A DNA stretch of 64,000 bases from Candidatus Woesearchaeota archaeon (GTDB lineage: Archaea > Nanobdellota > Nanobdellia > Woesearchaeales > WJIZ01), in the NCBI GenBank assembly GCA_018303125.1, contig JAGVYS010000003.1:637-64636 (forward strand), given 5' to 3'. Under the pieces are notes generated by a model. That model searched no databases and was not told where the DNA came from. It was given only the letters and a program-made list of their open reading frames with translations. The position numbers were made by a program, and so were the translations under genes. Below are positions 942 to 49,574 of the stretch, one piece after another. The number at the start of each line of letters is the position of its first letter. The first letter of the stretch is position 1.

Positions 942-1071
942 CCCCATCGTGTCTCTCTCTTTTCTTGTTTGCATCATTAATGGTATTCTTCAAACGTATT
1001 TAATTTTTTTCCAATTTCATGGCACAAACAAAAAACTATATAAAGGGGAGCAGCGCTGCAATTATCCCGGT

Positions 1072-2148: not shown

Positions 2149-2660
2149 CAGAAGAGATGTTGGATGTGGTGGACGAAGATGACAGAGTAATTAAGGTAAC
2201 ATCAAGGGATGATGCTCGTAGGAGAAATCTAAGGACAAGGGCAAGCCACATAATTATCATGGATAGGAAAGGCAATTTACTCATTCAAAAAAGGGCGGCC
2301 GGAAAGAAGATATACCCGAGCCTTTGGGACATAGGTGTAGGAGAAACAATCCAGACAGGGGAGAGCTATGAAAGTGCTGCAATAAGGGGAATGAGTGAAG
2401 AGCTCAACTTGACAATCAGCATGAAAAATATTAAGTTTCTATGCGATTACAAATTTGAGGATGAGATAACAAAGAGGATATGGAAGATATACTCTTGCAT
2501 ATTGCCAAGCCATGATGTAACAATGCAGGAAGATGAAATTTCAGAAATTAAATGGATATCTGCAATAGAAGCTGCAAATGCAGTGAAAACAAAAAATTTT
2601 GCGCCCTGGTGGTCGGGCATATTTGAAGAGGCGATGAAAAAAATTGGAGGCAAGGTTTGA
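2145..2660 (+). CDS. NUDIX hydrolase
   Basis: Nudix box GVGETIQTGESYESAAIRGMSEELNL (GX5EX7REUXEEXGU). Start overlaps the carA stop (ATGA) and the stop overlaps the carB start. Confidence 0.8.
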   Translation: MTEEMLDVVDEDDRVIKVTSRDDARRRNLRTRASHIIIMDRKGNLLIQKRAAGKKIYPSLWDIGVGETIQTGESYESAAIRGMSEELNLTISMKNIKFLCDYKFEDEITKRIWKIYSCILPSHDVTMQEDEISEIKWISAIEAANAVKTKNFAPWWSGIFEEAMKKIGGKV

Positions 2661-5600: not shown

Positions 5601-5851
5601 ACGGTAAAAAGCCAAATGCAGTAGATTATATAAAGGGCGGAAAGGTAGATATGGTCATCAACATACCTAAGTCATACCAAAGACAGGAGCTTTCAAACGG
5701 GTATATAATAAGGAGGGCAGCCGTGGATTATAATGTCCCGCTTATAACCAATACCCAGGTGGCAAAGCTGTTTGTATCTGCTATAAGCATGTATAGGCAG
5801 GATGGCCTTAAGATAAAATCGTGGAAGGAATACAAGGAGGTGCCAGGCTGA
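2657..5851 (+). CDS. carB: carbamoyl-phosphate synthase large subunit
   Basis: 1064 aa with two ATP-grasp halves (KVLVLGSGALKIGQGGEFDYSG and KVMVLGSGAYRIGSSVEFDW) and a C-terminal MGS-like domain. The apparent start is TTG at 2657, overlapping the NUDIX stop. Confidence 0.95.
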   Translation: MNPKKVLVLGSGALKIGQGGEFDYSGSQCLRALREEGIKSVLVNPNIATVQSSEEMADEIYFLPLTPYFIEKVIEKEKPDGIFLSFGGQTALNCGVELHSKGILKKHNVRVLGTQVSAIIATEDRGIFVKKLKEINVKTPRGIAVTNISGAIKAADKIKYPVMLRVAYALGGLGSGVCNNNKELAEKASKAFSSVKQILIEEYLEGWKEIEYEVVRDGNDNCITVCNMENFDPMGIHTGESIVVAPSQTLTNAEYHKLREISIKVIRHLGIIGECNIQFAFSPSSDDYRVIEVNARLSRSSALASKATGYPLAFVAAKLGLGYSLTEIDNSITKATKACFEPALDYIVVKMPRWDLQKFRRVEREIGTEMKSVGEVMAIGRNFEEAVQKAIRMLGTGLNGIIGDNISSKDIEKELRKPTDERVFAIASAIDKGISIEKIHSFSKIDKWFLHRIGNIVSVYRKLRKASIRRLSKELLSECKRNGFSDAQIAAIISSDEHEVRKLREKYSIFPSVKQIDTLAAEYPARTNYLYLTYNGTEDDISFADKKKVMVLGSGAYRIGSSVEFDWCCVNSAIALRKLGFRTIMLNYNPETVSTDYDMCDKLYFDDISFETVIDIYRKEKPDGVIVSMGGQIPNNLALKLHRSGIKILGTSPVSIDKAEDRHKFSKLLDSLEIDQPEWKELTTVRNAKKFAEKVKYPVLIRPSYVLSGAAMSVALNEKSLEEYLDKASSVSKEHPVVVSSFITGAKEIEIDAVANKGNLVCWAISEHIENAGVHSGDATIMLPPQRLYFETTRRVKKIAGQLAKALEITGPFNIQFLAKDNHVKIIELNLRASRSFPFVSKVFGTNFIDVATKVIMGQDIKKIGISVSDLEYVGVKAPQFSFSRLKGSDPTLSVEMASTGEVACFGDDLEEAFLKAFLSVGYVIPKKTVFLSTGPAESKAELLESCRLLRKMNFSLFATKGTHDYLRQMGVPSTVLYWPLDGKKPNAVDYIKGGKVDMVINIPKSYQRQELSNGYIIRRAAVDYNVPLITNTQVAKLFVSAISMYRQDGLKIKSWKEYKEVPG

Positions 5852-5874
5852 TTCCCTATGGGCAGCCTATTTTT

Positions 5875-7590
5875 ATGACAAAATACATCATTGTTGCGGG
5901 CGGCGTAATTTCTGGAGTGGGGAAAGGAGTTACAACAGCATCTATAGGCAAGATAATCAAGGAATACGGCTACAGCGTTACAGCCATAAAGATTGACCCT
6001 TACCTAAACTATGATGCAGGCACTCTCAGGCCAACAGAGCATGGCGAAGTATGGGTTACGGATGATGGTGGTGAGATTGACCAGGACCTTGGAAATTATG
6101 AAAGGTTTCTTGACATGGAAATACCTAAAATAAACAACATTACTTCCGGCCAGATTTACAAGACAGTCATAGACAGGGAAAGGAAAGGCGAATACTTAGG
6201 AGAAACAGTCCAGTTCATTCCCCATATACCGGACGAGATTAGGAGGAGAATAAAGGAGTCATCAAAGGGATATGAATTCGCAATAATAGAGATAGGCGGC
6301 ACAATTGGTGATTTTGAGAATCTTCCATTTCTCTTCGCCATGAAGGGGATGGAGCGCGAGATAGGCAAGGAAAATATCATCTATATACTTGTTTCTTACA
6401 TGCCTGTTCCAGAGCATATGGGCGAGATGAAGACAAAGCCGACCCAGCAGGCAATAAAGCTGCTTTCCGAATCAGGCATTTTCCCTGATTTCATAATATG
6501 CAGGTCGCTATCACCTCTTGATGATATAAGGAAGAAAAAAATAGAGACTTATGCCAACATACCAAGCGATTATGTAATCTCAGAGCCTGACATAGATACG
6601 ATTTACAGGATACCTCTTGACCTTGAGAAGGAAAGCCTCGGGTACAAGATTCTCTCTGAGCTCAGGATGAAGCTGAGGAAAAGGCCGACATTCAGGTCAT
6701 GGAAGGAGCTTGTAAAGAAGATAATAAGCCCATCAAAGAAAATCAGGATTGCCCTTGTTGGAAAATATCTTGACATAGGCAATTTCAGCCTAAAGGATTC
6801 TTACATTTCAGTAAATGAGTCGCTGCTCCATGCCGGCGCATCCCTTGATGTTGGCGTGGAAATAGAGTGGATAGACTCAAAGAAGCTTGAGAAGGAGAAT
6901 GCGGAAAAGATGCTTGAGGGATTTGACGGCATACTTATACCTGGGGGATTCGGCAATTCAGGAGTGGAAGGGAAGATAAGCGCGATAAAGTATGCAAGAG
7001 AAAACGGCATTCCATTCCTTGGCCTTTGCTATGGCCTTCAGCTTGCCATAGTTGAATATGCAAGGAATGTCTGCACGCTTAAGGATGCGCATACAACAGA
7101 AGTTGACAAGGACACAAAAAATCCTGTTATCTGTATCTTAAACTCACAGAAAAACATAATGGAGAACCATGATTATGGCGGCACGATGCGCCTTGGTGCA
7201 TATGCGGCAACCCTGAAGAAGGATACTAAAGTACTTTCATTATACAGGGAGACAGGAAGGCTGAAGGAAGACAGGGAAAAGCTCGGAAATTACAAGAAAT
7301 CAGAGCAGTTCAGGCTTGGAAAGATGGAGGATGACTCAAATGTTGTCCTTGAAAGGCACAGGCATAGGTATGAGGTGAATCCTGAATATGTAAGCAGGCT
7401 TGAGGAAAAGGGGATGGTTTTTTCTGGTTGCCATATTATGGAAGACGGCACAAGCCTTATGGAATACATTGAGTTGCCTCAGCATAATTTCTTTGTCGCA
7501 ACTCAAAGCCATCCTGAGTTCAAGAGTAGGCTAGGCAATCCCTCTCCATTGTTTTACGGCTTCATAAAGGCATGCTCTGAGAAGAAGTGA
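5875..7590 (+). CDS. pyrG: CTP synthase
   Basis: MTKYIIVAGGVISGVGKG N-terminus, C-terminal GATase domain (GLCYGLQ, HRHRYEVN). The upstream in-frame extension from 5821 overlaps carB and is rejected. Confidence 0.95.
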   Translation: MTKYIIVAGGVISGVGKGVTTASIGKIIKEYGYSVTAIKIDPYLNYDAGTLRPTEHGEVWVTDDGGEIDQDLGNYERFLDMEIPKINNITSGQIYKTVIDRERKGEYLGETVQFIPHIPDEIRRRIKESSKGYEFAIIEIGGTIGDFENLPFLFAMKGMEREIGKENIIYILVSYMPVPEHMGEMKTKPTQQAIKLLSESGIFPDFIICRSLSPLDDIRKKKIETYANIPSDYVISEPDIDTIYRIPLDLEKESLGYKILSELRMKLRKRPTFRSWKELVKKIISPSKKIRIALVGKYLDIGNFSLKDSYISVNESLLHAGASLDVGVEIEWIDSKKLEKENAEKMLEGFDGILIPGGFGNSGVEGKISAIKYARENGIPFLGLCYGLQLAIVEYARNVCTLKDAHTTEVDKDTKNPVICILNSQKNIMENHDYGGTMRLGAYAATLKKDTKVLSLYRETGRLKEDREKLGNYKKSEQFRLGKMEDDSNVVLERHRHRYEVNPEYVSRLEEKGMVFSGCHIMEDGTSLMEYIELPQHNFFVATQSHPEFKSRLGNPSPLFYGFIKACSEKK

Positions 7591-10415: not shown

Positions 10416-11186
10416 ATGGGTTTCAGGGAAACAGCTATAAGGGCTGCCAAGGAAGCAGGCAAGATTCATCTTAAGTATTTCAGGAAAAAATTTGAGATAA
10501 GATATAAGGCATACAAGCATAATAGGGTAACTATCGCAGATACGGAAGCAGAGAAAAAGATTGTTTCAGAAATAAGGAAAGAGTACCCTTCGCATAATAT
10601 CCTGGCAGAAGAGGCAGAATATCCAAGGACAGGCTCAGAATACCTCTGGGTGATAGACCCTCTTGACGGCACGAACAATTTCAGCAAGGGCATTCCTGTT
10701 TTTTGCGTTTCAATAGCGCTTGCTAAAGATAATGAGCTGATTCTCGGTGTTATCTATGACCCGACAAGAAATGAGCTTTTTGTTGCTGAGAAGGGCAAAG
10801 GCGCATTCCTGAACGGCAAAAGAATAAAGGTTTCAGGAAGCTCACAGCTGCATGACAGCATTCTTCTGACAGGTTTTTACTATGACAGGGGAAAGCCAAT
10901 GTTCTCTACGCTTGCAAGCATGCAGGAATTTTTCCTGAAGGATGTAATAGGCATAAGGTGCACAGGCAGCGCAGCCCTTGATCTCTGCAGCGTAGCTTCC
11001 GGTAGGGTAGATGGCTTCTGGGAATTCAAGCTTAACGCATGGGACTTTGCTGCCGGAAAGCTTCTTGTGGAAGAAGCAAATGGAAAGGTTACCGGCAGGA
11101 AAGGGGAAGGAATTGCAATTGGTGAGTCTTACATAGTCGCATCAAATAAAAAAATCCATGGCAAAATGCTTGATATTCTCAAATAA
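10416..11186 (+). CDS. suhB: inositol monophosphatase / fructose-1,6-bisphosphatase family protein
   Basis: WVIDPLDGTNNF metal-binding motif and the EE...DP.DGT architecture of the IMPase/FBPase family. Confidence 0.85.
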   Translation: MGFRETAIRAAKEAGKIHLKYFRKKFEIRYKAYKHNRVTIADTEAEKKIVSEIRKEYPSHNILAEEAEYPRTGSEYLWVIDPLDGTNNFSKGIPVFCVSIALAKDNELILGVIYDPTRNELFVAEKGKGAFLNGKRIKVSGSSQLHDSILLTGFYYDRGKPMFSTLASMQEFFLKDVIGIRCTGSAALDLCSVASGRVDGFWEFKLNAWDFAAGKLLVEEANGKVTGRKGEGIAIGESYIVASNKKIHGKMLDILK

Positions 11187-11189
11187 TAT

Positions 11190-11230
11190 GCTATTTATTT
11201 TCTATATTAAAAATAATTAAGGAAAAAATA
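11190..11230 (+). repeat. copy 1 of a ~40-bp AT-rich direct repeat (GCTATTTATTTTCTATATTAAAAATAATTAAGGAAAAAA)
   Basis: Near-identical copies at 11730-11770 and 12805-12845, all in the same orientation. Confidence 0.85.
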
Positions 11231-11237
11231 AGAAAAA

Positions 11238-11495
11238 TCAATAAACTCTATCCCTTTTGTCTATCTTGAAGACGATTATCTTATTCTCTGGATAGTTTAT
11301 TCGATAGAGTGCTCTATAATCACCAATCCTTAGCCTGAATACATTATGCTCGCCAACAATTCTTTTCGCATCGTGTGGCACGGCATTATTTTGCAATTGC
11401 TCATCAATCCTGTCAAGAATTCTCTTAACGGAATTTTTATCAAGCTTCTTCAGAAATTTTACTGGCTGCTTATCGTAATTAATCTCAAAACTCAT
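11238..11495 (-). CDS. relE: RelE/ParE-family type II toxin
   Basis: 85 aa with a C-terminal ...FRLRIGDYRALYRINYPENKIIVFKIDKRDRVY pattern typical of RelE/StbE; overlaps the upstream small gene by 4 nt. Confidence 0.7.
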   Translation of the reverse strand: MSFEINYDKQPVKFLKKLDKNSVKRILDRIDEQLQNNAVPHDAKRIVGEHNVFRLRIGDYRALYRINYPENKIIVFKIDKRDRVY

Positions 11496-11710
11496 AATCC
11501 GAGCGCCTTTCGCAGATTCTTGGCTGAAGTAAGCTTTGATTGTTTTTCATTTATTCGGCTTTCCTGTAGAAGCTCAGACTCTTCAATACTCAAGAACATA
11601 TCTTTATCCGGCATATTTTCCTTTATTGCATGAATCTCGGATTTTATAAGGTTGATATCATGCATTATTTGTTTTATTTCGGCTTCCATGCTTTTAGAAG
11701 TGTATTTCAT
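11492..11710 (-). CDS. putative antitoxin partner of RelE/ParE
   Basis: 72-aa ORF immediately upstream of the toxin with a 4-nt overlap (ATGA), the classic toxin-antitoxin arrangement. Confidence 0.55.
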   Translation of the reverse strand: MKYTSKSMEAEIKQIMHDINLIKSEIHAIKENMPDKDMFLSIEESELLQESRINEKQSKLTSAKNLRKALGL

Positions 11711-11729
11711 GTATTTATATTTATTGTGC

Positions 11730-11770
11730 TGCTATTTACTTTCTATATTGAAAATAATTAAGGAAAAAAA
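11730..11770 (+). repeat. copy 2 of the ~40-bp direct repeat
   Basis: GCTATTTACTTTCTATATTGAAAATAATTAAGGAAAAAAA; lies between the toxin-antitoxin pair and the nucleotidyltransferase/HEPN-like pair. Confidence 0.85.
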
Positions 11771-11845
11771 CTTGCTTATGTATGGCTGAAATATTTTTAA
11801 GAATACAGATAGATTTAAATATCAGTTGTCATTTTTATCTATCAA

Positions 11846-12364
11846 ATGATAAAAAAATCTACCATAGAAGAGATATTGGGCATTTTCTTCATGCATCCTA
11901 CCAGAGAATTCCACATCAGGGAATTTTCCAGGGTAAGCGGCTTTTCAATGCCAACTATAGTTTCAGCTATGAATGAGCTTGCTCGAAATAAGCTTATCAC
12001 GAAAATAAGCCAGCGTGGCCTTACCCTGGTTAAGGCAAATAGGGAATATGCTGTCTTTACAAGGCTGAAGCTTGTTTCAAACCTTGAACGAGTCTACCTA
12101 TCGGGGATTATTGACTACCTATCCCGGATTTATTCACACCCTCAGCTCATAATACTCTTCGGAAGCTATGCAAGGGGAGAAGACATTGAAAGCTCTGATG
12201 TGGACATAGCCATAAAGTCATCAAGGCATATTGACGCTGATTTTTCAAAATACGACAAATATCTCGGCAGGAAAATAGCAATCCATGAGTTCGATGAGAA
12301 AATCCTCTCAGTGGAATTTCTTGCAAACTTGCACAACGGCAAGGTGCTGGAGGGCACATGGTAA
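11846..12364 (+). CDS. winged-HTH plus minimal nucleotidyltransferase (MNT, Pol-beta superfamily) protein
   Basis: LFGSYARGEDIESSDVDIAI is a clean hG[GS]x9-13DhD nucleotidyltransferase motif. It is a paralog of 48480..49076. Confidence 0.8.
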   Translation: MIKKSTIEEILGIFFMHPTREFHIREFSRVSGFSMPTIVSAMNELARNKLITKISQRGLTLVKANREYAVFTRLKLVSNLERVYLSGIIDYLSRIYSHPQLIILFGSYARGEDIESSDVDIAIKSSRHIDADFSKYDKYLGRKIAIHEFDEKILSVEFLANLHNGKVLEGTW

Positions 12365-12789
12365 AAGAATTTGGACATTTTATCCGAAGAGGCGACGTGA
12401 AGAAGCAGTCTGTAGATATCAGGTTATCCCAAGCCACTTTCAGGGAAAGCGCGGAAAGGATAGTCCTCGCAGCACACTTGCTTCGCATATCAAAGCCGAA
12501 ATATGCGCTGGAGAATGCATATGAATTAATGAGGGAGGCAGCGGATGCGCTCTTATATGCTGATGGCTATAAGTCTTACTCTCATGAGGCTTCCATAATC
12601 TACCTTCTTGAAAATGATTTTTCTGAGCATGATGTTCTTGAGTTTGACAGGTACAGGAAAATCCGGAACAGCATCAAATAATATGGTGAAAACTGTGGTA
12701 AAGAGGATGCTGAGGCATGCATTACACTTGCAAGAAAAGTCATCTCTAAAATACAGGTTCTTTTGCAGGGCAAAAACAAGCAGGAATAG
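12358..12789 (+). pseudogene. HEPN/KNTase-C-like substrate-binding partner of the MNT, interrupted by an in-frame TAA at 12679-12681
   Basis: The ORF ends ...FDRYRKIRNSIK*. Reading on in frame gives YGENCGKEDAEACITLARKVISKIQVLLQGKNKQE*, which aligns with the C-terminus of the paralog at 49073..49468 (RRLRHNINYYGYKPSLEEVKEVKAIAKSLFEKIK). Confidence 0.55.
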
Positions 12790-12804
12790 GTTGTACATTT
12801 TATT

Positions 12805-12845
12805 GCTATTTTCTTTCTATATTGAAAATAATTAAGGAAAAAAAT
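12805..12845 (+). repeat. copy 3 of the ~40-bp direct repeat
   Basis: GCTATTTTCTTTCTATATTGAAAATAATTAAGGAAAAAAA; sits at the junction with the GC-rich block. Confidence 0.85.
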
Positions 12846-12918: not shown

Positions 12919-13284
12919 TTAGGTGGCGCTTTCGTCCTTAACTAAGCGAATTTCTTCGACTTCCGGAGATGGCGCTGTGTCATCCTGCCAAGTAGCAATG
13001 CAGCCTGCCTCTGCAAATAGAGTAATCCTGCACTCCTCCCCTGTAGCCTTAAACCCGTGCCACACCTCTGCAGGGATAACTAAGACCTGTCCAGCCATAA
13101 TCTTTTCATTCGTTCCGCTCTCTTTAAGGAGATTACATGTTCCTTTCTGCACGGCGAATATTTTGACGCCGTTGTTCTTATGCAGCTCTATCCTCTGCTC
13201 AGGAGTGAGAGTTATGACCTTTACATCAAACCCAGTAAGGCGTGATAACATCTCTGAAACGATTTTCGTTAGTTTGAAACTCAT
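12919..13284 (-). CDS. cupin-domain protein
   Basis: The two-His/Glu cupin region (...GQVLVIPAEVWHGFKATGEE...); GC-rich, first gene of the compositionally distinct block. Confidence 0.6.
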   Translation of the reverse strand: MSFKLTKIVSEMLSRLTGFDVKVITLTPEQRIELHKNNGVKIFAVQKGTCNLLKESGTNEKIMAGQVLVIPAEVWHGFKATGEECRITLFAEAGCIATWQDDTAPSPEVEEIRLVKDESAT

Positions 13285-13561
13285 AAGTACCTCGTTAGGT
13301 TAATCAGCCAGTAACACAAGGTATTCTGGCCAATCGTTTAATGTTGTTGAGCTCATTCCTCCTTGTCCGCCTGTCTTTTTGCCTTTCGGCAAGCATTTTC
13401 AGCCTTTTTCGGCGTGGTGGTTTTTTGAGCCTTTTGTGATTACCATTTCTTTTCCATCTCTCTTTTTTTTCGTGATTTTTCATTGCTTTTTTGTATCCGA
13501 CCCGCACAAGGATGCTACCTCACTGGATAGCAATTAATCCTTGCTGGGGCTGGAGAATTGG

Positions 13562-14464
13562 TTAGACGTCGCAGAGCTTGATTGCCTGTGCGAGTCCCTT
13601 CTTTGCGTCTCCTGTCGGGATGAACTCGTGGCCGACGAAGCCTTTGTAACCGACATCCACAAGGGCTCGCATCACCGCAGGGTAGCTAATCTCTTGTGCA
13701 TTTGGATCCAGTTCCCCTCTTCCCGGGCATCCCGCAGTGTGGACATGGCCAAGCAAGGCAGCGCATTGGCGTATGCGCCGGATGACATCTCCATGCATGA
13801 CTTGGACATGGTAGATGTCAAACAGTAACCGAACCCAAGGGGAATTTACATAGGTGACAATCTCGGCGCAGACAGCAAGATCGTTTCCCCAATATCCTGG
13901 GTGGCCTTTCATTGGGTGAGTGTTGTCACGCGTGTTCAGATGCTCCAAGCACACTACCACCTTTTTTTGCTCAGCGAGAGACACCAGTTTTTTCAAGCCA
14001 ACTACGCACGTTTTGATGCCTTCGGCGACACCGATTTCGTCACCAAGCGGTTCTGTCGGGGAAGTCTCGCTCCCATCGAACTTGCGTCCGTATCCAGTGA
14101 ACACCACCGTAGCCGGAAATCCAGCATCTCCAAGGGATTTGATGTTCTCACCGACCTTCGCGATGAGCGCTTCATGGTTCGCACGGTCGTTCCACCCGCG
14201 CACGAAAGGAGGCTCTTTGTCCTTGATGGCAACAGGCAAACCAATGGCGCAGATCAAGCCATGCTTCTCGAGCACAGGAAAATCCGCAGGCGAAACCAGT
14301 TCTACGCTCTTTGCCCCAAGTCGCTTTGCGTTCTGGCAGAGCTCATCAAGGGTCATTTTTCCATCCCCGGTGAAGCACCACCCAGCAACTGAGTGGTTTA
14401 TCCTGTCTTTGAGTTTTGTTTTTTTATTCATGATGTTTAATGATTTGATTTTTCTCCCAAGCAC
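13562..14464 (-). CDS. xylose-isomerase-like TIM-barrel sugar-phosphate isomerase/epimerase (hydroxypyruvate-isomerase-like)
   Basis: 300-aa TIM-barrel pattern (VCLEHLN, HVHTAGCPGRGELD...GHEFIP); GC ~55-58%. The start could instead be the internal Met at 14431. Confidence 0.7.
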   Translation of the reverse strand: MLGRKIKSLNIMNKKTKLKDRINHSVAGWCFTGDGKMTLDELCQNAKRLGAKSVELVSPADFPVLEKHGLICAIGLPVAIKDKEPPFVRGWNDRANHEALIAKVGENIKSLGDAGFPATVVFTGYGRKFDGSETSPTEPLGDEIGVAEGIKTCVVGLKKLVSLAEQKKVVVCLEHLNTRDNTHPMKGHPGYWGNDLAVCAEIVTYVNSPWVRLLFDIYHVQVMHGDVIRRIRQCAALLGHVHTAGCPGRGELDPNAQEISYPAVMRALVDVGYKGFVGHEFIPTGDAKKGLAQAIKLCDV

Positions 14465-14855
14465 CTTAGCTATTGATGCCTGAGTCTTGGAAAGCCCAAA
14501 CTGATTTGTCCAAGCTATCCGCTTGCCCTCACGCGAATGAGAACAAGTGAGTTGTTAGCAACTCATGGCAACGCCCACTCATGCAGACTTGGGCGTTGTT
14601 GATGAACTGCTTTTGGGTTACCAGCCCGAATAGGTAATATATCTATTGAAACTCTTTTACGAGAATTTTCTGTTGCATTTCTGACATTTTACTTCTGTTG
14701 TGCCTTCCGAGTCACCTTTTAGAGAGACCACAAGGAATTGCGCAGTCAAGCAGCAATCGCACCTGCCGTCTCCCGAAAGGATGTGAATAGTACCATTTCC
14801 ACAGATAAGAATTGGACTAGGTTTTTCGTTCATAACCTCTCCTTTGATACACAGG

Positions 14856-16313
14856 TTATTGTTTTCCGAGACTCTTTCTTATGGCTGTCCAGCCGTCGAA
14901 TCTTTCAACGACCTGAGTGGGAATCCAAGAGGGTTTGATGGGCTTCAGCCTGCAGAGATGCTCCTGAATTTCCCCTACTCCTCTCTTAGTTGCGCTGGCA
15001 AGTGCGGCAATGAGCGCACCCTTGGCACAATTGAAGCCGCTGCCTTCTGCCTTGAGCACCTCTAATTTTCTGCCATTCGCCAGTTGGTATATCAAGCCCT
15101 GGATGATGGAAGAGTTAGCCAAGTCACCTGTAAGGCAGACTTTGGTGATGCCTGCGTCCAGCATAGGGATAGCCCTCTCCCACATCCCGAAGGTAATGGA
15201 CTGAAGGACGCTGATTGCCCAGTCGTTGAGTGCTGCATCCGAAGGCGCGTTGTGGACAGTGAACCCAGTATTAGTGGGCAAAAACCGCTCGAGAAGGGTA
15301 TCATCCAGATAGAAGAATGGCTTGCCACTCATTGCTAGCCTGTCGAGCGTCTTGTCCACATTATCATTGGATTTAGTTTTTGCCTTGATAGCGACTCGCA
15401 TGCACCCCTTGAAGGATGTCCACGCCAAGCCACTGTTGACAAGGATAGTGAGCAGGAAGACCTTGCCGAAGTCGTCGAAACGGTGATACTGGCCATCATG
15501 CGTCCACGAGTCATTGGTTGCAGTGCCAGTTCCTGACGAGCCAAAAGATAGGGTTACGGCATCATTCGGAGAGCCAAGCCCTGTTTTGCCGGAATGGTTG
15601 TCTGCCAGAGGAGAGTGATAAACGCATTGGCTTCCCAATCCAAGTGATCCTGCAAATTCCGTGTTGCAGTTTCCAACAACATTTCCCGTAGCCACCACTT
15701 CTGGAATGATTTCGGGGTTTAGGCCTAGCGCCCTAAAGACCTCTACAGCCACTTTCCCATCCCTGGTGAGGATGTTATTGCACATTCCGTCTGACCTGCT
15801 GAGCACCAACTTGCCTGTCAGCAGATACCCAAGATAGTCCGCAAGAGTGCATATCCATCTGACTTTTTTCCAGACATCCGGCATTTTTTTCGAGAACCAG
15901 TATGCCTTTGCCAGGATCAAGCCAGAATAGACATCGTTTCCTGTAATCCCCCTGATATCTGCTTTTCCCTTAATCTCATCAACCATGTCGGCAGCACGTT
16001 CATCACACCAGAGGACTGCCCCAGCATGCACAGGTGCATAATCGACGTCCAAGAGAACAAGGGAATGTTGAAACTGTCCAACGCACAGGTGTGTTACTGC
16101 CTTGGCTTTTTCCCCAAGAATGCCACGAAGAGTCTCAGCCAATTTTGAGATGTCAAATTCATGTCGCTTCTCAGGGAGGTTTCCCACTTTAGGCGTTGCG
16201 ATTGAAGCGCCATTTGTGAGACCGGTTGTGCTGTCATAGAAGACAGCTGCACAGGATGTTGTGCCGAAATCTATCCCGGCAACAACTCCACTTACATTTA
16301 TTTTCTTTTTCAT
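14856..16313 (-). CDS. FGGY-family carbohydrate kinase (xylulokinase/rhamnulokinase-like)
   Basis: N-terminal VVAGIDFGTTSCAAVFYD (the DxGTT ASKHA motif), 485 aa. Confidence 0.8.
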   Translation of the reverse strand: MKKKINVSGVVAGIDFGTTSCAAVFYDSTTGLTNGASIATPKVGNLPEKRHEFDISKLAETLRGILGEKAKAVTHLCVGQFQHSLVLLDVDYAPVHAGAVLWCDERAADMVDEIKGKADIRGITGNDVYSGLILAKAYWFSKKMPDVWKKVRWICTLADYLGYLLTGKLVLSRSDGMCNNILTRDGKVAVEVFRALGLNPEIIPEVVATGNVVGNCNTEFAGSLGLGSQCVYHSPLADNHSGKTGLGSPNDAVTLSFGSSGTGTATNDSWTHDGQYHRFDDFGKVFLLTILVNSGLAWTSFKGCMRVAIKAKTKSNDNVDKTLDRLAMSGKPFFYLDDTLLERFLPTNTGFTVHNAPSDAALNDWAISVLQSITFGMWERAIPMLDAGITKVCLTGDLANSSIIQGLIYQLANGRKLEVLKAEGSGFNCAKGALIAALASATKRGVGEIQEHLCRLKPIKPSWIPTQVVERFDGWTAIRKSLGKQ

Positions 16314-16413
16314 TTTTATTTTATTTGTTTAAACTGAAGTCCAATCCCTTCCCAGAGGAAAATCTCCCCAGAAGAAATTCCAATGGAAATGGAAAGGGCT
16401 TGGAGGTAATGAT

Positions 16414-17601
16414 TCAATTGATGCTGGAGATGTCCACTTTGGCGCCGCCCTGCTCTGCACTCAACAAGGATGCTTGCAGAACACGTTGAGTGTGCATTGT
16501 GGACTGGATCGTTGCAAAAGTGTCCGTATGCAATGGTTTCTGTCCAGCCACTTTGAGGAGGAATTCCAGCAGCAGGAAGATGAAGGTGTGCTCATACCCG
16601 ATGTTGTGTCCCTCTGGCCAGCAATTACTCACGTAGGGGTGACCCTTTTGAGAAACGTCGATTGTTTTCCAGCCTCGTGTCAGCTTGTTCTCGGTGTAGT
16701 CCACCCAATGCAATTCAGTGAGGCTTTCGAGACTCCATGTCAATCTCCCTTTGGTGCCGTCAATCTCGATGAGATTATCGTTGTTGCTTCCAGCGGACGT
16801 TCGTGTTGCCTCGAACGTGGCAATGAGACCCTTCTTCGATCGGCCATTGAACAACGAGATGTCATCGACATCGCTCGCAAGCGTCTTTGGGACATCTGCT
16901 GATTTTTCGTTCCATTCAGGGTTTGGTCGTTGCTGCCAGACAGTTTGCGTGTAGCCACCGCTCACCGACTCCAACTCGTCCTGACAGAGCAACACGAACA
17001 GGTCGATGATGTGCGCATTGAGATCACCATGCGCACCAGATCCGCAGATGTCTTTCAAGAACCGCCACACCCTTGGGCAACTTTCGTCACCCCATTGCTG
17101 GAGATATTTAGCGCGGAAGCGCAGGATTTTCCCAATCAATGTGATGAACTGCAACAGGGCGAATACCACTGCAGGGGTAAAGCGGTAATTGTGCCAGACC
17201 GCATTATGCACTCCTTTATCGGAGGCAGTTTTCGCTGCCTGAACCATCCGGCTAGCCCCTTGCAGGGTGTTTGAGAGGGGCTTCTCTGTCAATGTGTGCT
17301 TTCCTACCTCCAAAGCACTCACAGCGATGTCTGCGTGGCTGTCGTTGGAGGTTGCAACGTCCACCAGATGAATTTCAGCGTTGTCGAAGACATACTTCGG
17401 ATCGGTTGTCCAATTCTGCCATCCCTGTTCTCTAGCGAACTTTTCAACCGCATCTTCTCTTCGTCCCACCACCGTGTGGAGGACTACTTCGAATGGCGTT
17501 TCTTCTGGGAAAAAATACCCGACTTGCCGAAGCGCATTACTATGCGCCCGTCCCATAAAACCGTGACCATACATGGCCACATTTAGTTTAGGTTTACTCA
17601 T
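16414..17601 (-). CDS. Gfo/Idh/MocA-family NAD(P)-dependent oxidoreductase
   Basis: N-terminal Rossmann region (LNVAMYGHGFMGRAHSNAL) plus a C-terminal alpha/beta domain, 395 aa. Confidence 0.75.
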   Translation of the reverse strand: MSKPKLNVAMYGHGFMGRAHSNALRQVGYFFPEETPFEVVLHTVVGRREDAVEKFAREQGWQNWTTDPKYVFDNAEIHLVDVATSNDSHADIAVSALEVGKHTLTEKPLSNTLQGASRMVQAAKTASDKGVHNAVWHNYRFTPAVVFALLQFITLIGKILRFRAKYLQQWGDESCPRVWRFLKDICGSGAHGDLNAHIIDLFVLLCQDELESVSGGYTQTVWQQRPNPEWNEKSADVPKTLASDVDDISLFNGRSKKGLIATFEATRTSAGSNNDNLIEIDGTKGRLTWSLESLTELHWVDYTENKLTRGWKTIDVSQKGHPYVSNCWPEGHNIGYEHTFIFLLLEFLLKVAGQKPLHTDTFATIQSTMHTQRVLQASLLSAEQGGAKVDISSIN

Positions 17602-17956
17602 GGATTAGTTGTCTTTCTTCCCGGAATTGTTTTTTCTGAGAAGCCCATCACGTGTTTGGGCCTTAATTGCTTTCCAAGATGTTCCGGGTTGCCATCAAGA
17701 AAAGCAATCATATCCTCCTTCAAACAGGAAGGAGAAATTTCAGCATAGCTGCTGAAGGCAGCACACTCCAATGAAGCAAGTGGGCTGTTATTCAACATCT
17801 AATTGCCAGCCATGGGACGCACTCACAGCCTGTAAGTGCACGACCATCCCAAAACAATATGGTCTATCCCATGCTGGCAAAGTTAATGCTCGCCATATTC
17901 ATCCCTTTGCCTTATGGCAGCGTTTGGCTTAGGGAATCCTATGGCTGGCCGATTGT

Positions 17957-19042
17957 TCAGTTATTCTTGGCCATGGCCTCTTGATGTGAGATACCAGAAG
18001 TGAAGAGGATGTTGCTTCTGGCATGGCGTCCTGCGACCACGGCGGCGTTATCTTCGTCTTTGTCACTTGTTAAATGCAACGCTAGCATTTTTCCGTCCTC
18101 GTGCTCAAGCGCAACTTCATCGAAACTGAACTCTCCTTCTCTGAGAGCGACCTGGACGTCTCGATAATCTCCGTCACTCCAATGCAGAGAGATGTACTCG
18201 TCACCCCTTCTTCCACTCGGGTCGTCCAAGTGATGAGGAGAGTGTGTCGAACGAACACCGCCGTGCTGGCACTTCGCACCCTTTAGGTGTTCAGCATCGA
18301 TTGACCCGGGCGCTTCCTCGTTGATGAACCGTACACCATCGCCATTCAGCATGCCCTGTTTGATGAAATGAGAGTGGTCATAGAGGTACCCAAACCCATC
18401 ATCTGCCACAGCTTTGTGCAACTCAACTGCACTGTAGGGTTCCCACGCAGATTCTCCCTTATGAATTTCCAACCTGGCCTTCTTGATTCCGTGGGCCTTG
18501 AAGATACCAACAGCTTGCCGAATGCGGCCAGCTTCCCAATCCAAGCGAGACTTCCGTTCATCATCTGGCAGACCAGGGAACTCACGAAGTGAATCTTCGT
18601 AGATGGACGAGCCGCAGAACCAATTGATCTTGGTGATTCCAGCGGCCTGACAGCCAGCGGCGATGAGCTGGATTTCATCCATGGTAGCAGCCTGAATGGC
18701 TTGGGCATCAGGCTTTCCATTGGCCTCTTTCCACATGTGGACAGGCAGAAATTGCTTGAAGCCACTGTGAATCGATGTCGCATTCAGGCACATCGTGATA
18801 GGGTGTACGCTGACGCTGAGAACAGCAAGCTCGCCAACAGTTCCTTTCCATTCGTCTAGGCATTCCTTTCCACTCCTCTGGCCATTACCATTGACGAAAT
18901 GGTGGTATGGGAAGTGATCCCGTCCAGGTTGGATGCCATCAAAAACCAAGTTGCCGTCCGGCATCTTTGTTCGCCTGAGCTTGCTAACTAACTCAGCGAG
19001 AGTCCATGCAGCGAACTGCAATGATACTAGTGTGAATTTCAT
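17957..19042 (-). CDS. xylose-isomerase-like TIM-barrel protein (putative), possibly secreted
   Basis: 361 aa, GC-rich, hydrophobic N-terminus (MKFTLVSLQFAAWTLA); resembles sugar-phosphate isomerase/epimerase family proteins. Confidence 0.5.
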   Translation of the reverse strand: MKFTLVSLQFAAWTLAELVSKLRRTKMPDGNLVFDGIQPGRDHFPYHHFVNGNGQRSGKECLDEWKGTVGELAVLSVSVHPITMCLNATSIHSGFKQFLPVHMWKEANGKPDAQAIQAATMDEIQLIAAGCQAAGITKINWFCGSSIYEDSLREFPGLPDDERKSRLDWEAGRIRQAVGIFKAHGIKKARLEIHKGESAWEPYSAVELHKAVADDGFGYLYDHSHFIKQGMLNGDGVRFINEEAPGSIDAEHLKGAKCQHGGVRSTHSPHHLDDPSGRRGDEYISLHWSDGDYRDVQVALREGEFSFDEVALEHEDGKMLALHLTSDKDEDNAAVVAGRHARSNILFTSGISHQEAMAKNN

Positions 19043-19425
19043 AGTTTTGCTTTCCTTCTAGACAATATTGCAGACAACCTTTAGCCTTTTTCCTTTTTTA
19101 GCTTTAGTTGCCCCTACAAACTCTTTTCAGAGAACCGCCAGTTGTCTCTTCAGGCAGTTTTTGATCCACTCCCACATGCATAATGGGACTGGTAATTTTT
19201 CCGAGTGATTTCTCGAATTTTGCGAGTTTATTCTCGACGCCTTCAAACAAAGACGATTTTATCCATCTCATTCGAGACAGACTTTTTCAGTGTGTAACCA
19301 CTGAAGGCAGCCCTCAGATAATAGAGGCCAAGTAGGCATACTTTCTAAGGGCTGTTGTTCGGGGGTTAATTTAGTTACTTCTCCGAGCACCATTTCTGGT
19401 GAGTGGACTTATTATCGGATGTGGA

Positions 19426-20568
19426 TCAGGCAGCAACCTTCCACATTGCCTCGATGTTGGTGATGGAGAATCTGGCGTAGCCGATCGGATCCGCCCCAAA
19501 ATGGTGCAGATCATGTTCGGCGAACACCGTTTCACCATCCCATTGCCGCAAGATTTTGACAGCTTTTGCCAGATCCTCGGTGATCGTTGGTGAACCATCA
19601 CCTACTGCGAGGTCCCAATCCATCAGGACGGGCACATCAGCGGCGTGGACTTCTTTGCCGAGCAGTTGCTCCAGATTGACTGGCAGCATCTGACCTGAGT
19701 TGACATGCACGAACCCATCGAACAGACCTGCCTCATTGGTTCGCCTGGTGCCGTCCTCGACAGTTATGCCAGATGCCAACAGATGAGCCCATTCGTTATT
19801 GAGCCACAGACCCTTCCAGCCAAGCTCCTTGTTAACCTCGTTGCAGAACTTGATTGCCAACGCCAGCGTCGGGATGATATCGAGGACAGGGTCTCCAGGT
19901 TTGAACTCAATGTGCATCTTCCGTTCATGGCCTGTTTCGGTCTTCACCCGGCGCAGGACATTGACGATTCCGTCTCTTAGTTGACCCCACTTCTTCGATT
20001 TTGGAATCAATTCATTGGAAACCATGAGGTCCTTAGGGATGTTTTTGATGGGATTCCCATCTCCTGCCGGCCAGATGATGGTTTTTCCCTCTCCAAGCCC
20101 CTTCTCCTCGAACTCCAGTGCCAATGACACGGCCTCCACATGAAGATCCTCCGCCATCTGCCGACGATTGGCGTCAGGATGGAAGAACGCACCGAGCTCC
20201 GTCCCTGGATAGCCAAATGCAGGCGCAGTGAACGCCAACACTTTCGGGAAACGCCCAGAACGGATTCCCTTGACTAGGTTATCCTTGCCGATCGCGCCGG
20301 GCTTGTCAATGAGCTCGGAATACTGTGGTTGAGATGTTCTGATTTCCAATCCGATATGGAAGCTTGATCTCAGTTCGAGGCCAAGCTCTTCTCCAAGCGA
20401 CTTCACCTCCTTCAGACGGTCACTTACCTTGACGTAACCAGCTTTTGGATCACCTCCGCCGAACTTGAAGTTTGCAGGTCGTGGGTTTACGACCCATGAG
20501 GGCACTGAATGAATGATTTGCTTTGACATTGCTTTATCTCCTAAAGGAGCTCTTTTCCAGCCCTTCAT
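19426..20568 (-). CDS. xylose-isomerase / L-rhamnose-isomerase-like TIM-barrel sugar isomerase
   Basis: 380 aa; HIEFKPGDP resembles the xylose isomerase FAIEPKPNEP metal-site motif. Confidence 0.65.
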   Translation of the reverse strand: MKGWKRAPLGDKAMSKQIIHSVPSWVVNPRPANFKFGGGDPKAGYVKVSDRLKEVKSLGEELGLELRSSFHIGLEIRTSQPQYSELIDKPGAIGKDNLVKGIRSGRFPKVLAFTAPAFGYPGTELGAFFHPDANRRQMAEDLHVEAVSLALEFEEKGLGEGKTIIWPAGDGNPIKNIPKDLMVSNELIPKSKKWGQLRDGIVNVLRRVKTETGHERKMHIEFKPGDPVLDIIPTLALAIKFCNEVNKELGWKGLWLNNEWAHLLASGITVEDGTRRTNEAGLFDGFVHVNSGQMLPVNLEQLLGKEVHAADVPVLMDWDLAVGDGSPTITEDLAKAVKILRQWDGETVFAEHDLHHFGADPIGYARFSITNIEAMWKVAA

Positions 20569-20848
20569 ATGTTAAGGCCGTTCTGATCCAGCTCCACATA
20601 AGACCAGAGAGATTTATCGATAACCTCTTTAGAGGGAATGATGCCAAATCCCACAAAGCATCATTTTTTCACAGCAGCTCTCGAGTTGAGGCTGTCTTAG
20701 AAGAACATTCCAATGTTCTTCCGTTGTGCTTACAAGCACACGTCCTCCCACCTTGGTAGATAGGAGGAAGCGTGACTGCAAACGAAACAAAGGTAGCTCT
20801 CCGAACTAACTTTCAAAGAGAAAATCCTTTGTTTTACGTTACCGCCAA

Positions 20849-21847
20849 TCACGTAGCCAGCGGGAACTTCCTGTTGAACTTCCGCATAGCTTTGACGCAA
20901 GTCTCCGATTGCTCACGGGCATTTGGATTGAAGCACAAATCCATTGCTCGCCAGTCATAACCCTCGGGCAGACCAGTGAAGAACTCTTCGGCAGCCGGAA
21001 ACAACTTGTCGAATTTCAGAATGCCTGCGCCGAATTCATCGTGAGTAGAGGTTCCTGGACCATTCGGAGACTCTCGGTGTAGTTCCCCCTTGGTGTCAAT
21101 CCAGTGGACGTGCTTCACAAACGGACCGATTTCACGCATGAACCCAATCTGTTCCTCGCCTTTTGTGTTGGTGTGATCTTTTGCGAAGGTGTCGATTTCG
21201 CCGATCTGTTCTGCACCCATGCAACCTACGGTGTGGCCGTGACAAGTGTCATACAGTGAACCAACATTTTTGACGCCGGCATCTGAGAGGGCCTTGTGAA
21301 ACCTCACCACATCACGTGGTTTATTGATACCAAACATTGGCTCAAACTCAATGACGATTGTGAGGCCTTCGTTTCCGGCAATTTCCCCAAAGCGCTTGAA
21401 TCTTTTGACATAGACCTCAATTGCACCTTCGACACCAATACCTTGCGGGCCATAGATACGGCTCGGAGGATCGATGAAGTCCATGCGCATACGCGGCGTA
21501 TTTAATCCGCCTTTGCCGCACCATTTGGCGTTTTTGATCACTGCGCTCTCGAGACGGTCAGTGTCGCTGAAGAAGCTGAGATCCTGATTCCAGAAATCAC
21601 CGGCGACCCCGCTTATTGTCATGCCGTGTTCTTCCAGCAAGGCCAAGAACAAAGCAATGGATGTAGTGCTTCCGCAGTTATTCGGATCTGGGTGTGGACC
21701 CTTCCCAAAGAGTTCAACCCCGTCGAACCCGAGCCCGTGCTTTTTCCCGAGGAACTTGATTATGGAAACAATGTCCATTTGTTGGGTCTTCAAGAACAAA
21801 AAGGCCCATAGCCCCATAGATATGCGATAGTTAGGCTTTTTAGCCAT
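20849..21847 (-). CDS. sugar-phosphate isomerase/epimerase (xylose-isomerase-like TIM barrel)
   Basis: 332 aa with the GxELF, IEFEP and HWID features of the family. Confidence 0.65.
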   Translation of the reverse strand: MAKKPNYRISMGLWAFLFLKTQQMDIVSIIKFLGKKHGLGFDGVELFGKGPHPDPNNCGSTTSIALFLALLEEHGMTISGVAGDFWNQDLSFFSDTDRLESAVIKNAKWCGKGGLNTPRMRMDFIDPPSRIYGPQGIGVEGAIEVYVKRFKRFGEIAGNEGLTIVIEFEPMFGINKPRDVVRFHKALSDAGVKNVGSLYDTCHGHTVGCMGAEQIGEIDTFAKDHTNTKGEEQIGFMREIGPFVKHVHWIDTKGELHRESPNGPGTSTHDEFGAGILKFDKLFPAAEEFFTGLPEGYDWRAMDLCFNPNAREQSETCVKAMRKFNRKFPLAT

Positions 21848-22284
21848 AGTTTACCTCATTTATTACGTTGTTTTTTTCTTTCCCAGATTTTTAGTTATTA
21901 ACTCATTATGTACTTGAGCCTTTCATTGCCCTGACCCAGGAAGTTAAACAGGGCAAGAAATTGAATTTGGAGCCGCCGCCTAAACAGTTAACCCCCAAAG
22001 GTTAATCAATGCACATATGTCAGGGGCGGCTCCAAAGCTGGTGAGGGGCGAGCACAAAACACCTCATTGAACGGGGTGCTTTAGTAACCTATGTGCCCGC
22101 CGCCTCGAAATTAGTGGAGTCACAACCAAGCCTTACTCATAAGTTCCCGTGTATGGTTCAGCCTAGCTATGACCCCAAAAAAGAGTGAGGAGCCGCGTGG
22201 CTTAGCCGCCTTCATCATTCTTCCTTTGGGGAACTGGTAAGAAGAACGAATTCTGCTCTAATGGAGAGCACGGCTCCTCGAAAA

Positions 22285-22362
22285 TGGTGCACCCGGCGAG
22301 GCTCGAACTCGCAACCAGCTCGCTTAAAAGGCGGCTGCTCTTCTAAATTGAGCTACGGGCGC
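22285..22362 (-). tRNA. bacterial-type tRNA-Lys(UUU)-like gene with encoded CCA and a 1-nt bulge in the anticodon stem (possible pseudo-tRNA)
   Basis: Reverse complement: GCGCCCG TA GCTC AATTTAGAA GAGC A GCCGC CTTTTAA GCG(A)GC TGGTT GCGAG TTCGAGC CTCGC CGGGTGC A CCA. Acceptor stem, D-arm and T-arm pair cleanly; the variable loop TGGTT resembles bacterial tRNA-Lys; an extra A disrupts the 3' anticodon stem. GC-rich, unlike the host tRNAs. Confidence 0.6.
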
Positions 22363-25637: not shown

Positions 25638-26059
25638 TTAGAAAGTATGTCGCCCAGCAATGAAGCCCTGCTTTCCTTCTCCCTCATTTCCTGGATAATC
25701 TCTCTCATCTCTTTTTTAAGCAGTGCTATGTCCCTGAAGCAATTCAGTTTTTCCTGTACCTTGATCTCCTCTGCGTCTATGAGCTTCTTCCTGAACTCAA
25801 CAATCGCCCTCTGCAATTCCGCTGATGCATAATTATCAGGCGGCATCATGTTGCTTATGGCGTTTTTCATCTTCTCAATGTCAGAAAGCATCTCAGAATG
25901 AAGCTTTTCCCTTACCTTTATCTGCTCACTTATCTCATCAACAGCTTCCCTTAAGGAAGCCATCTTTGTTTCAGATATGCTGTCAAGGAGCATTTCTGCG
26001 GAATTGCCTTTATTCTCAAGCTCATCCAGCATATTTTTGAATAGTTTTGACTCTTCCAA
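25634..26059 (-). CDS. coiled-coil protein, co-operonic partner of the HerA-like ATPase
   Basis: 141 aa rich in E/K/L heptads; 4-nt overlap with the ATPase start. Confidence 0.5.
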   Translation of the reverse strand: MEESKLFKNMLDELENKGNSAEMLLDSISETKMASLREAVDEISEQIKVREKLHSEMLSDIEKMKNAISNMMPPDNYASAELQRAIVEFRKKLIDAEEIKVQEKLNCFRDIALLKKEMREIIQEMREKESRASLLGDILSK

Positions 26060-48094: not shown

Positions 48095-48248
48095 TAACAG
48101 TACCTCCCTTTATTTGTATAAATAACTTTCTTTGTTTTTCCAAAACAATAATCACTAGTAGCCAGCATGTGTTATGACATCTCAATAATCATAGTTTGCC
48201 AATATATCGATTATATGCAAAGTCTATTTTGTTGCTGAGAATAAAAGA

Positions 48249-49468: not shown

Positions 49469-49574
49469 CTATTTGTGTTCTCTGTACAGCTGAAACATCG
49501 CTCGAAAGTCTGGGTTTTTCGGCATTCTGTTTTTCAGGCGCCATTCCTTGTTAATCATCTTGCTTGAAAATAAT

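Follow-up and report, generated by a model that had tools for sequence, protein, structure and literature searches.

A conserved dif-like palindrome downstream of suhB borders toxin-antitoxin cassettes in a woesearchaeal contig and may be a target of Xer recombination

Introduction

The dif sites on which Xer tyrosine recombinases act are defined by two 11 bp arms around a 6 bp spacer (PMC2958812, PMC8371274). Published examples are intergenic, conserved among relatives, present in single copy and located at an inversion of sequence polarity, with AT-rich conserved flanks in the Thermococcales (PMC2958812, PMC8371274, PMC5357621), although in S. solfataricus two copies are found at one location (PMC2958812). 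In bacteria such sites are used by integrative mobile elements exploiting Xer (IMEX), among them CTX-phi, TLC-phi and the gonococcal genetic island, in which the copies at the two borders typically agree in the spacer and in one arm but not in the second (PMC5357621), and by the pdif modules of Acinetobacter, small and often toxin-antitoxin-encoding units with 28 bp Xer-type boundaries that are thought to be moved by the host XerC/D (PMC6449649, PMC13141974). Here we describe a 40 nt AT-rich element that is present in three direct copies around two toxin-antitoxin cassettes in a 64,000 nt stretch of DNA (hereafter the window; positions 637 to 64,636 of contig JAGVYS010000003.1, assembly GCA_018303125.1) from a Candidatus Woesearchaeota archaeon. 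We propose, at a probability of about 0.5, that the copies are dif-type core sites of a tyrosine recombinase, probably the host XerA, into which the cassettes were inserted as circles in the manner of IMEX or dif modules.

The element resembles Xer dif sites (XerA-dif of Thermococcales and Sulfolobales; XerCD-dif) in its imperfect 11-12 bp inverted arms, its 6 bp AT-rich spacer, its intergenic position, its conservation among relatives and its AT-rich conserved flanks, and perhaps also in occupying essentially one locus per genome, not adjacent to the recombinase gene, and in lying at a polarity inversion, the terminus position being judged from a 64 kb contig and not from a closed genome. Like IMEX, the cassettes carry no recombinase of their own, are flanked by direct dif-like copies and could pile up in tandem, but they are far smaller (0.5-1.1 kb), hold toxin-antitoxin pairs only, are neither phage nor conjugative island, and have an archaeal host, which would possess one Xer only and lack FtsK. 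With the Acinetobacter modules they share the small and discrete toxin-antitoxin content, the lack of a recombinase and borders that look like Xer-type sites, whereas pdif modules are mainly found on plasmids between inversely oriented sites and the present cassettes are chromosomal and lie between direct repeats with an identical, asymmetric spacer. An array of small cassettes with homogeneous repeats and a toxin-antitoxin cargo that stabilises the array is also known from sedentary chromosomal integrons such as the Vibrio superintegron; these differ from the present locus, which has no attC structure, no IntI or attI and no common orientation of its cassettes. By analogy, bacterial IMEX elements and Acinetobacter dif modules would be the nearest known counterparts of the cassettes. 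In the literature searched we found no report of a dif site from DPANN archaea, or of archaeal IMEX or dif-module-like elements.

Results

Three direct copies of one site in the window

A repeat search of the window recovered the AT-rich element in three direct copies, all on the plus strand, in agreement with a preliminary description of this DNA which had been made from the sequence and its open reading frames (ORFs) and had reported three repeats of about 40 bp in the same orientation:

Copy c1: 11190..11229, plus strand, GCTATTTATTTTCTATATTAAAAATAATTAAGGAAAAAAT; left arm CTATTTATTTTC at 11191-11202, spacer TATATT at 11203-11208, right arm AAAAATAATTAA at 11209-11220, then GG and an A6 tract
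Copy c2: 11731..11770, plus strand, GCTATTTACTTTCTATATTGAAAATAATTAAGGAAAAAAA; left arm at 11732-11743, spacer TATATT at 11744-11749, right arm GAAAATAATTAA at 11750-11761, then GG and an A7 tract
Copy c3: 12805..12844, plus strand, GCTATTTTCTTTCTATATTGAAAATAATTAAGGAAAAAAA; left arm at 12806-12817, spacer TATATT at 12818-12823, right arm GAAAATAATTAA at 12824-12835, then GG and an A7 tract

The copies are spaced 541 nt (c1 to c2) and 1074 nt (c2 to c3) apart, and differ from one another at a single position (c2 and c3) or at three (c1 and c2). When the 30-mer was searched for with up to three mismatches, the three copies were the only matches in the 64 kb and none was found in 100 dinucleotide-preserving shuffles; the number of copies expected by chance in the window is thus nil. 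A profile built from the three copies detected them by nhmmer with E-values of 5e-12, 2e-11 and 2e-9 and gave no further match in the 64 kb with an E-value under 2. At 47065-47079 on the plus strand, between two minus-strand genes, an exact half-site, CCCTTAATTATTTTC, stands alone, with neither spacer nor second arm.

Exact scans of larger collections returned no match for the window 30-mer in genome contigs, none for two versions of the site in viral contigs, and a single match for a 27-mer in metagenome contigs, which corresponded to the same locus. BLAST of an idealised 48-mer against plasmids yielded only AT-rich matches at chance level (E of at least 0.02), and an Rfam scan of the window and six related loci reported tRNAs only.

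A duplex palindrome with arms, spacer and A-tract

The core of the element is a quasi-palindrome, in which 12 nt inverted arms, YTAWTTATTTTC, enclose the 6 nt spacer TATATT and are followed by an A-tract. Alignment of 13 copies from nine contigs (including the relatives described below) gave the consensus TGTTATTTATTTTC-TATATT-GAAAATAATTAAGG-AAAAAAA, with an invariant TTTC-(T/A)ATAT(T/A)-GAAA inside the 12-6-12 dyad symmetry. Every one of the 13 copies has 12 nt arms and a 6 nt spacer (TATATT, TATATA or AATATT), the A-tract usually stands on one side, and conservation falls off sharply beyond about 34 alignment columns plus the A-tract. Two of the copies (L030 and L031) are perfect or near-perfect 30 nt palindromes. 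Differences between copies are mostly confined to one arm, and the spacers do not vary within a multi-copy locus (all three copies of the window have TATATT, both of L035 have TATATA); identical spacers are needed for strand exchange by a tyrosine recombinase.

To place the site among other palindromes of the window, an inverted-repeat scan after Cortez et al. was applied with 11 nt arms, 4-10 nt spacers and a cut-off of at least 80% conservation in the loci of relatives. Among the 86 candidates obtained, this site alone reached the cut-off in all eight relatives' loci checked. The site thus shows what has been used to recognize dif elsewhere, namely two imperfect inverted arms of about 11 bp around a 6 bp spacer, in an intergenic position and with more than 80% conservation among relatives.

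Folding of the single strands of all three copies, on both strands, was no better than that of shuffled sequences (z from -0.74 to +0.53), and the symmetry is therefore one of the double-stranded DNA, such as a dimeric protein would be expected to bind. This result bears on the possibility that the locus is an integron-type cassette array with attC sites as repeats. The cassette sizes of 0.5-1.1 kb, the toxin-antitoxin cargo and the homogeneous repeats resemble sedentary chromosomal integrons, and integrons have been reported in Archaea (PMC9668308). However, the element measures 40 nt as against 57-141 nt for attC, all six strands lack a hairpin beyond chance (z about 0), no GTTRRRY/RYYYAAC core is found in or beside the copies, no match to IntI or Phage_integrase was obtained among the ORFs scanned across the window, and the two cassettes are oppositely oriented with promoters of their own. 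Membership of the attC/integron class was rejected on the failure of three defining features, and the integron-like array considered in the preliminary description, contradicted by the missing hairpin, core and integrase and by the orientation of the cassettes, appears to us extremely improbable.

The site follows suhB in related genomes, with and without cassettes

Four archaeal loci (L012, L035, L036 and L037) were retrieved by SuhB protein alone and are therefore free of ascertainment bias on the position of the site. In all four the site lies downstream of suhB, the inositol monophosphatase gene that also precedes c1, and suhB is the conserved left neighbour of the site in five DPANN genomes. 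The three loci with an asymmetric TATATT spacer (L012, L036, L037) have it in the same orientation as the window; that of L035 is the symmetric TATATA. The SuhB proteins of these relatives are 62-66% identical to the window protein, yet the site contains identical runs of 18-23 nt, and nhmmer detected it with E-values from 1e-4 to 4e-12. Six non-syntenic, probably bacterial suhB loci (L013-L018) had no copy of the site.

The Woesearchaeota contig JAAOYF010000045.1 (L012/L028) is syntenic with the window, with the gene order CPSase, CTP synthase, PurE, PurC, SuhB, and carries a single copy directly after the suhB stop, TTTTTTTT-G-CCTTAATTATTTTC-TATATT-GAAAATAAGCAAG; apart from this site, no intergenic segment of the two contigs is aligned by BLAST. 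L037 likewise has a single copy, 50 nt past the suhB stop, and L036 has one copy beyond a 113 aa gene of opposite strand downstream of suhB. In L035, on the other hand, the first of two direct copies immediately follows the suhB stop and the second that of a nucleotidyltransferase (MNT) gene, and the pair brackets a 1.18 kb nucleotidyltransferase cassette whose content is unlike either window cassette. The two L035 copies are identical over 31 nucleotides, among them the spacer and one of the arms, whereas their second arms are different; this one-arm difference of the IMEX type is weaker in the window.

At one and the same position, then, relatives hold an unoccupied single site (L012/L028, L037), a different cargo between two copies (L035) or, in L036, a 113 aa gene. 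The preliminary description had suggested looking in relatives for suhB without the cassettes, which the single-copy loci provide, and had regarded a cassette order conserved in all relatives as an argument against insertion; the content in fact varies among them.

Occurrence of the site in other archaeal genomes

The degenerate 23-mer CTTAATTATTTTYWATATWGAAA was scanned across 185,579 species genomes and gave eight hits, five of them in archaeal metagenome-assembled genomes (MAGs; Woesearchaeota, Nanoarchaeota or 'archaeon') and a sixth on a contig labelled Aminicenantes with archaeal genes. In five of these six archaeal-type hits the similarity extends past the pattern into the second arm (ATAA...). 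The hits in Prochlorococcus and Lachnospiraceae show no such extension and are taken as chance. There was one exact hit per archaeal genome, except for two in MAG Bin_444, in which the site is found on two contigs (L029 and L030). As the loci L029-L034 were retrieved via the site itself, they give little information on its position. In L034 two inverted copies, at 985-1024 and 5680-5727, enclose a 4.7 kb segment.

Several of these contigs call for separate comment. The 'Aminicenantes bacterium' MAG contig (L031, JAFCCF010000001.1) encodes an archaeal tRNA-splicing endonuclease and a FEN-1-like protein beside a perfect 30 nt site, and is probably a misbinned DPANN contig. At 3050-3150 of L029 the full site is preceded at 49 nt by a further arm, which retains part of a spacer (CCTTAATTATTTTCAATAGAAAG), and by a G6/C6 hairpin; these may be the scar of an earlier recombination. 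The match in the Nanoarchaeota contig L032 (7620-7800) lies in an AT-rich stretch between inverted boxes resembling the mini origin recognition box (mini-ORB), TTTCCTATGGAAA and TTTCCATAGGAAAC, upstream of a 402 aa ORF that is orc1/cdc6-like as judged by eye only; this stretch is probably a replication origin, and the match, which has a poor second arm, is probably due to chance.

A low copy number is hard to reconcile with a small palindromic intergenic repeat of the repetitive extragenic palindrome (REP), bacterial interspersed mosaic element (BIME) or miniature inverted-repeat transposable element (MITE) kind, three copies of which would have landed near toxin-antitoxin genes by chance. The element is indeed palindromic, AT-rich, about 40 nt long, intergenic and often placed just after stop codons, it occurs at unrelated loci across genomes, and the truncated arm of L029 and the lone half-site at 47065-47079 of the window might be expected of such a family. 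Instead of many dispersed copies, however, the 64 kb hold a single locus and the genomes with exact hits gave one or two each; terminal inverted repeats with target-site duplications are absent outside the palindrome itself, five genomes keep the element in the same position and orientation after suhB, and no RAYT or IS200-type transposase was seen. We regard this origin as very unlikely.

The same data may be read as the attachment site of a dedicated integrase, encoded by an unseen mobile element or elsewhere, rather than as the dif of XerA, in which case the cassettes would be integrase-less satellites of the cis-mobilizable element (CIME) type. All evidence for site-specific insertion applies to this explanation, and the copies on two contigs of Bin_444 and the inverted pair around the 4.7 kb segment of L034 would suit it. 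In Archaea, however, the attachment site of an integrase usually shares sequence with a tRNA gene or with the gene of the integrase (PMC8371274), and the present site overlaps neither. Its vertical retention at one syntenic position across a large evolutionary distance, even where uninserted (L012, L037), better suits a host function than a passive target, and no integrase was found in the approximately 125 kb of DPANN DNA around the sites. A dedicated integrase is in our view unlikely; taken together with XerA acting at a dif site, it makes recombination of one kind or the other the probable function of the element.

Cassettes and neighbouring genes

Domain searches upheld the gene calls and the placement of the copies given in the preliminary description (c1 between suhB and relE, c2 between the cassettes, c3 between the HEPN-like and cupin genes):

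10416..11186, plus strand: suhB, inositol monophosphatase (Inositol_P, 2e-69)
11238..11710, minus strand: cargo of cassette 1, RelE/ParE toxin and 72 aa antitoxin candidate, GC content 34% as against about 43% for the contig
11238..11495, minus strand: RelE/ParE toxin (ParE_toxin, 9e-11)
11492..11710, minus strand: 72 aa antitoxin candidate, upstream of and overlapping the toxin gene
11846..12789, plus strand: cargo of cassette 2, MntA-like nucleotidyltransferase and HEPN-like partner
11846..12364, plus strand: MntA-like nucleotidyltransferase with an N-terminal winged helix-turn-helix (NTP_transf_2, 1.8e-9; MntA, 1e-8)
12358..12789, plus strand: HEPN-like partner, overlapping the nucleotidyltransferase gene (aligns with partners of MNT homologues)
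12919..13284, minus strand: cupin gene, which opens a block of about 49% GC

Both cassettes consist of two adjacent small genes with toxin and antitoxin domains, of type II (RelE/ParE) and type VII (MNT-HEPN), respectively. They encode only RelE and its partner, or MNT and its HEPN-like partner, and no recombinase is among them; both are bounded by copies of the host's dif-like site, as is the cassette of L035, which does not carry a recombinase either. The HEPN-like gene of cassette 2 has an in-frame TAA (12679-12681) at a conserved Tyr codon (RNxxKYYG in the partners of homologues and in a second pair of the window), which cuts the protein from 143 to 107 aa in every assembly, and cassette 2 is therefore probably decaying. 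The second MNT/HEPN-like pair of the window (48480-49468, plus strand, 198 and 131 aa) has no copy of the site nearby and lies among tRNA genes (tRNA-Thr at 48247-48320 and tRNA-Leu at 49574-49657).

Nine homologues of the MNT cassette were found, the closest 48% identical, and the loci of the closest MNT homologues (L019 and L021) have no copy of the site. The contig of the 48% homologue (L019) is bacterial-looking, with a sigma-54 activator, and has a dense toxin-antitoxin island at 780-6110. Between its pairs this island has unrelated short intergenic repeats of its own, including a three-copy 38-mer and a repeat with a 10 bp perfect stem, ATTAATTGCA-AAA-TGCAATTAAT.

Copy c1 occupies the 51 nt gap between the stop codons of suhB (11184-11186) and relE (11238-11240), c2 sits between the divergent starts of the two cassettes, and c3 lies between convergent ends, beginning 16 nt past the HEPN-like stop and ending 75 nt short of the cupin stop. 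Including the relatives, the site is found in all transcriptional contexts, that is, between facing 3' ends (c1, c3, L037, second copy of L035, L035-B), between divergent starts (c2, L031) and between co-directional genes (the others), and is indifferent to transcriptional context.

These contexts are the main ground on which to weigh a regulatory palindrome, that is, a promoter acting back to back in both directions, a terminator module or an operator bound by a dimeric DNA-binding protein, which would have been kept after suhB and of which the extra copies would have come as control regions of the cassettes. Read outwards, each arm resembles a B recognition element (BRE) followed by a TATA box (GAAA-ATAATTAA; AGAAAG-TAAATAG). 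On the minus strand the left arm of c2 reads AGAAAG-TAAATAG and has its centre 25 nt before the antitoxin ATG (11710), similar to the 26 nt that separate TATA box and ATG at 62575-62607, our comparator for leaderless genes of this contig; the matching distance suggests that this arm could act as a promoter. L031 lies between divergent genes, the second L034 copy (L034b) about 55 nt upstream of an operon of a 142 aa protein and HerA, and the L030 and L029 copies 65-90 nt upstream of genes, while most copies abut a stop codon and contain a run of T or A, the signal for termination in Archaea. Some copies thus probably supply a promoter to their neighbours as a secondary use.

As the function for which the site is kept, on the other hand, regulation is rather unlikely. 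At c1, c3, L037 and L035-B the genes on either side end towards the site and no promoter is needed, which upholds the earlier opinion that c1 and c3 are not simply promoters, and the MNT gene has a separate TTTAAATA box, 29 nt before its ATG and outside the repeat. The neighbours of the site (suhB, Ham1, RNase Z/EndA, aRF1, an Asn-synthase-like gene) have no functional theme, and one or two copies per genome are unlike a regulon. Nor do the copies stand before many unrelated housekeeping genes, as the preliminary description would have expected of a generic promoter element; in the 64 kb they are clustered at one locus. Conservation over 30 nt with a fixed 12-6-12 symmetry would be unusual for promoters or terminators where the flanking protein is 62-66% identical, and regulation offers no mechanism for an exact 40 nt duplication at both cassette borders in two different genomes.

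A terminus-like setting, the GC-rich block and a HerA-like neighbour

The cumulative G-C maximum (12875) and the cumulative A-T maximum (11245) of the window both fall at the array, and over many kilobases the genes on either side point to the site in the window, L035, L037 and L034. Polarised 4-mers were also tried; flips at the site exist but are confounded with gene orientation, and they were not used. The features to the right of c3 are as follows:

12919..22280, minus strand: block of sugar-metabolism genes (cupin, four AP_endonuc_2 TIM barrels, FGGY kinase, GFO/IDH/MocA), GC content about 49%
23829-26059 in the window and 3444-5628 in L034, minus strand: HerA/FtsK-superfamily ATPase with a 141-142 aa partner near the site (DUF87; best NCBIfam hit CedD-like; PDB HerA 4d2i)

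The near end of the GC-rich block borders c3 and its far end meets the 3' end of a tRNA-Leu(taa) gene (22288-22362). The earlier proposal that the same site hosts this block was not borne out, since no fourth, even degenerate, copy was found by nhmmer at its far end; a repeat of the tRNA-Leu 3' end near 12.9 kb was not found either. Between the window and L012, everything from the site to adenylosuccinate lyase (26160-27560) differs, and the region beside the site is therefore variable.

The HerA-like genes of the window and L034 are 68% identical at the nucleotide level, and the segment carrying the gene in L034 is the one bracketed by the two inverted site copies. Between the tRNA-Leu and HerA-like genes of the window (22363-23828), 1.5 kb of 46% GC are free of ORFs longer than 95 codons, and at the equivalent place of L034, between the site copy and the HerA-like gene (1031-3443), 2.4 kb of 50% GC are ORF-free. 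The two stretches share no nucleotide similarity and neither has an Rfam match; they could be RNA of no known family or decayed foreign DNA.

The source contig and its counterparts in other assemblies

The contig is archaeal, as judged by its split RNA polymerase subunits, eIF-1A and intron-bearing tRNAs, and among named SuhB proteins the nearest are those of Woesearchaeota and Nanoarchaeota MAGs (62-66% identity). The same locus is present in identical order in several groundwater metagenome assemblies. Short-read unitigs break here because c2 and c3 have a 32-mer in common. Two contigs from different assemblies (L023 and L026) both stop at exactly 12849, 4 nt to the right of c3; at k = 141 the 40 nt repeat cannot explain this shared end, for which the A7/T5 homopolymers, or a population that is heterogeneous at the site border, may be responsible.

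Discussion

A series of site-specific insertions at an attachment-like repeat had been suggested for this locus. The relatives with one and with two copies and the arm-spacer-arm anatomy of the site speak for this idea. In the model that we favour, a dif-type site used by the host Xer enzyme, the arms YTAWTTATTTTC would be two 12 bp recombinase-binding sites, the 6 bp TATATT the crossover region, and the A-tract would mark one side. The ancestral state would be a single copy just past suhB, at a convergence of genes that resembles a replication terminus. The most likely enzyme would be the Xer-family tyrosine recombinase of the host, XerA, the normal role of which at this site would be chromosome-dimer resolution. 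Small circular DNAs, carrying a toxin-antitoxin operon and a single site of this kind each, would recombine with the chromosomal site, each insertion bracketing its cassette by two hybrid copies and adding one copy to the locus, so that two successive insertions would yield the three direct copies and the two cassettes (541 and 1074 bp). As they encode no recombinase, the cassettes would rely on the host enzyme, and their toxin-antitoxin cargo would favour retention. XerA purified from P. abyssi needs no partner to recombine plasmids bearing dif, and intermolecular reactions, that is, integration, are the favoured ones (PMC2958812), which makes the chemistry of cassette entry plausible.

Several observations weigh against this model. 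The search for a cognate recombinase, already recommended in the preliminary description, found no tyrosine recombinase or Phage_integrase domain in the window or in any fetched locus; dif is, it should be said, normally not adjacent to xerA. The inner part of bacterial dif reads ATAA-N6-TTAT, which the spacer-adjacent ends of our arms, TTATTTTC and GAAAATAA, do not match; the site has no evident likeness to such dif sequences, a point that would favour a dedicated integrase. Bin_444 has the site on two contigs. The resemblance of the arms to archaeal BRE and TATA elements means that c2, L031 and the second copy of L034 could be promoters. Genes do not converge at the site in L012, L029 and L030, where they are co-directional, or in L031, where they are divergent, and the terminus position is therefore not universal. 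Within the window GC skew tracks the coding strand and is positive again at 29-34 kb among plus-strand genes, so that the skew summit is not independent of the switch in gene orientation. An exact look-up of SuhB, RelE, MNT and cupin in the assemblies gave no empty site, excised circle or alternative junction in the same species, and neither circle junctions nor population polymorphism, as evidence of integration or excision, were seen among the assembled contigs. The relatives, moreover, are distant and not strains of one species, and the 'empty site' of L012 and L037 is an evolutionary inference rather than a population polymorphism.

A wider claim may be put forward tentatively, as possible but short of an even chance: that the 30 bp palindrome is the chromosomal dif of DPANN archaea of the Woesearchaeota/Nanoarchaeota type, and that the cassettes are the first archaeal mobile cassettes to exploit Xer, moved by XerA alone. 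HerA has been proposed as a possible archaeal analogue of FtsK, and it is more speculative still that the HerA/FtsK-superfamily ATPase near the site in two genomes could be the functional FtsK analogue for dif recombination.

If the proposal is true, it would provide a concrete dif candidate for DPANN archaea and a marker of the terminus in MAGs that are mostly fragmentary. The hijacking of Xer known from bacterial IMEX and Acinetobacter dif modules would extend to Archaea, where a single XerA, which favours integration in vitro, would serve without FtsK. It may also bear on the bacterial-looking sugar block that adjoins c3. Tiny symbiotic archaea with reduced genomes could in this way gain and shuffle small cassettes without carrying integrases.

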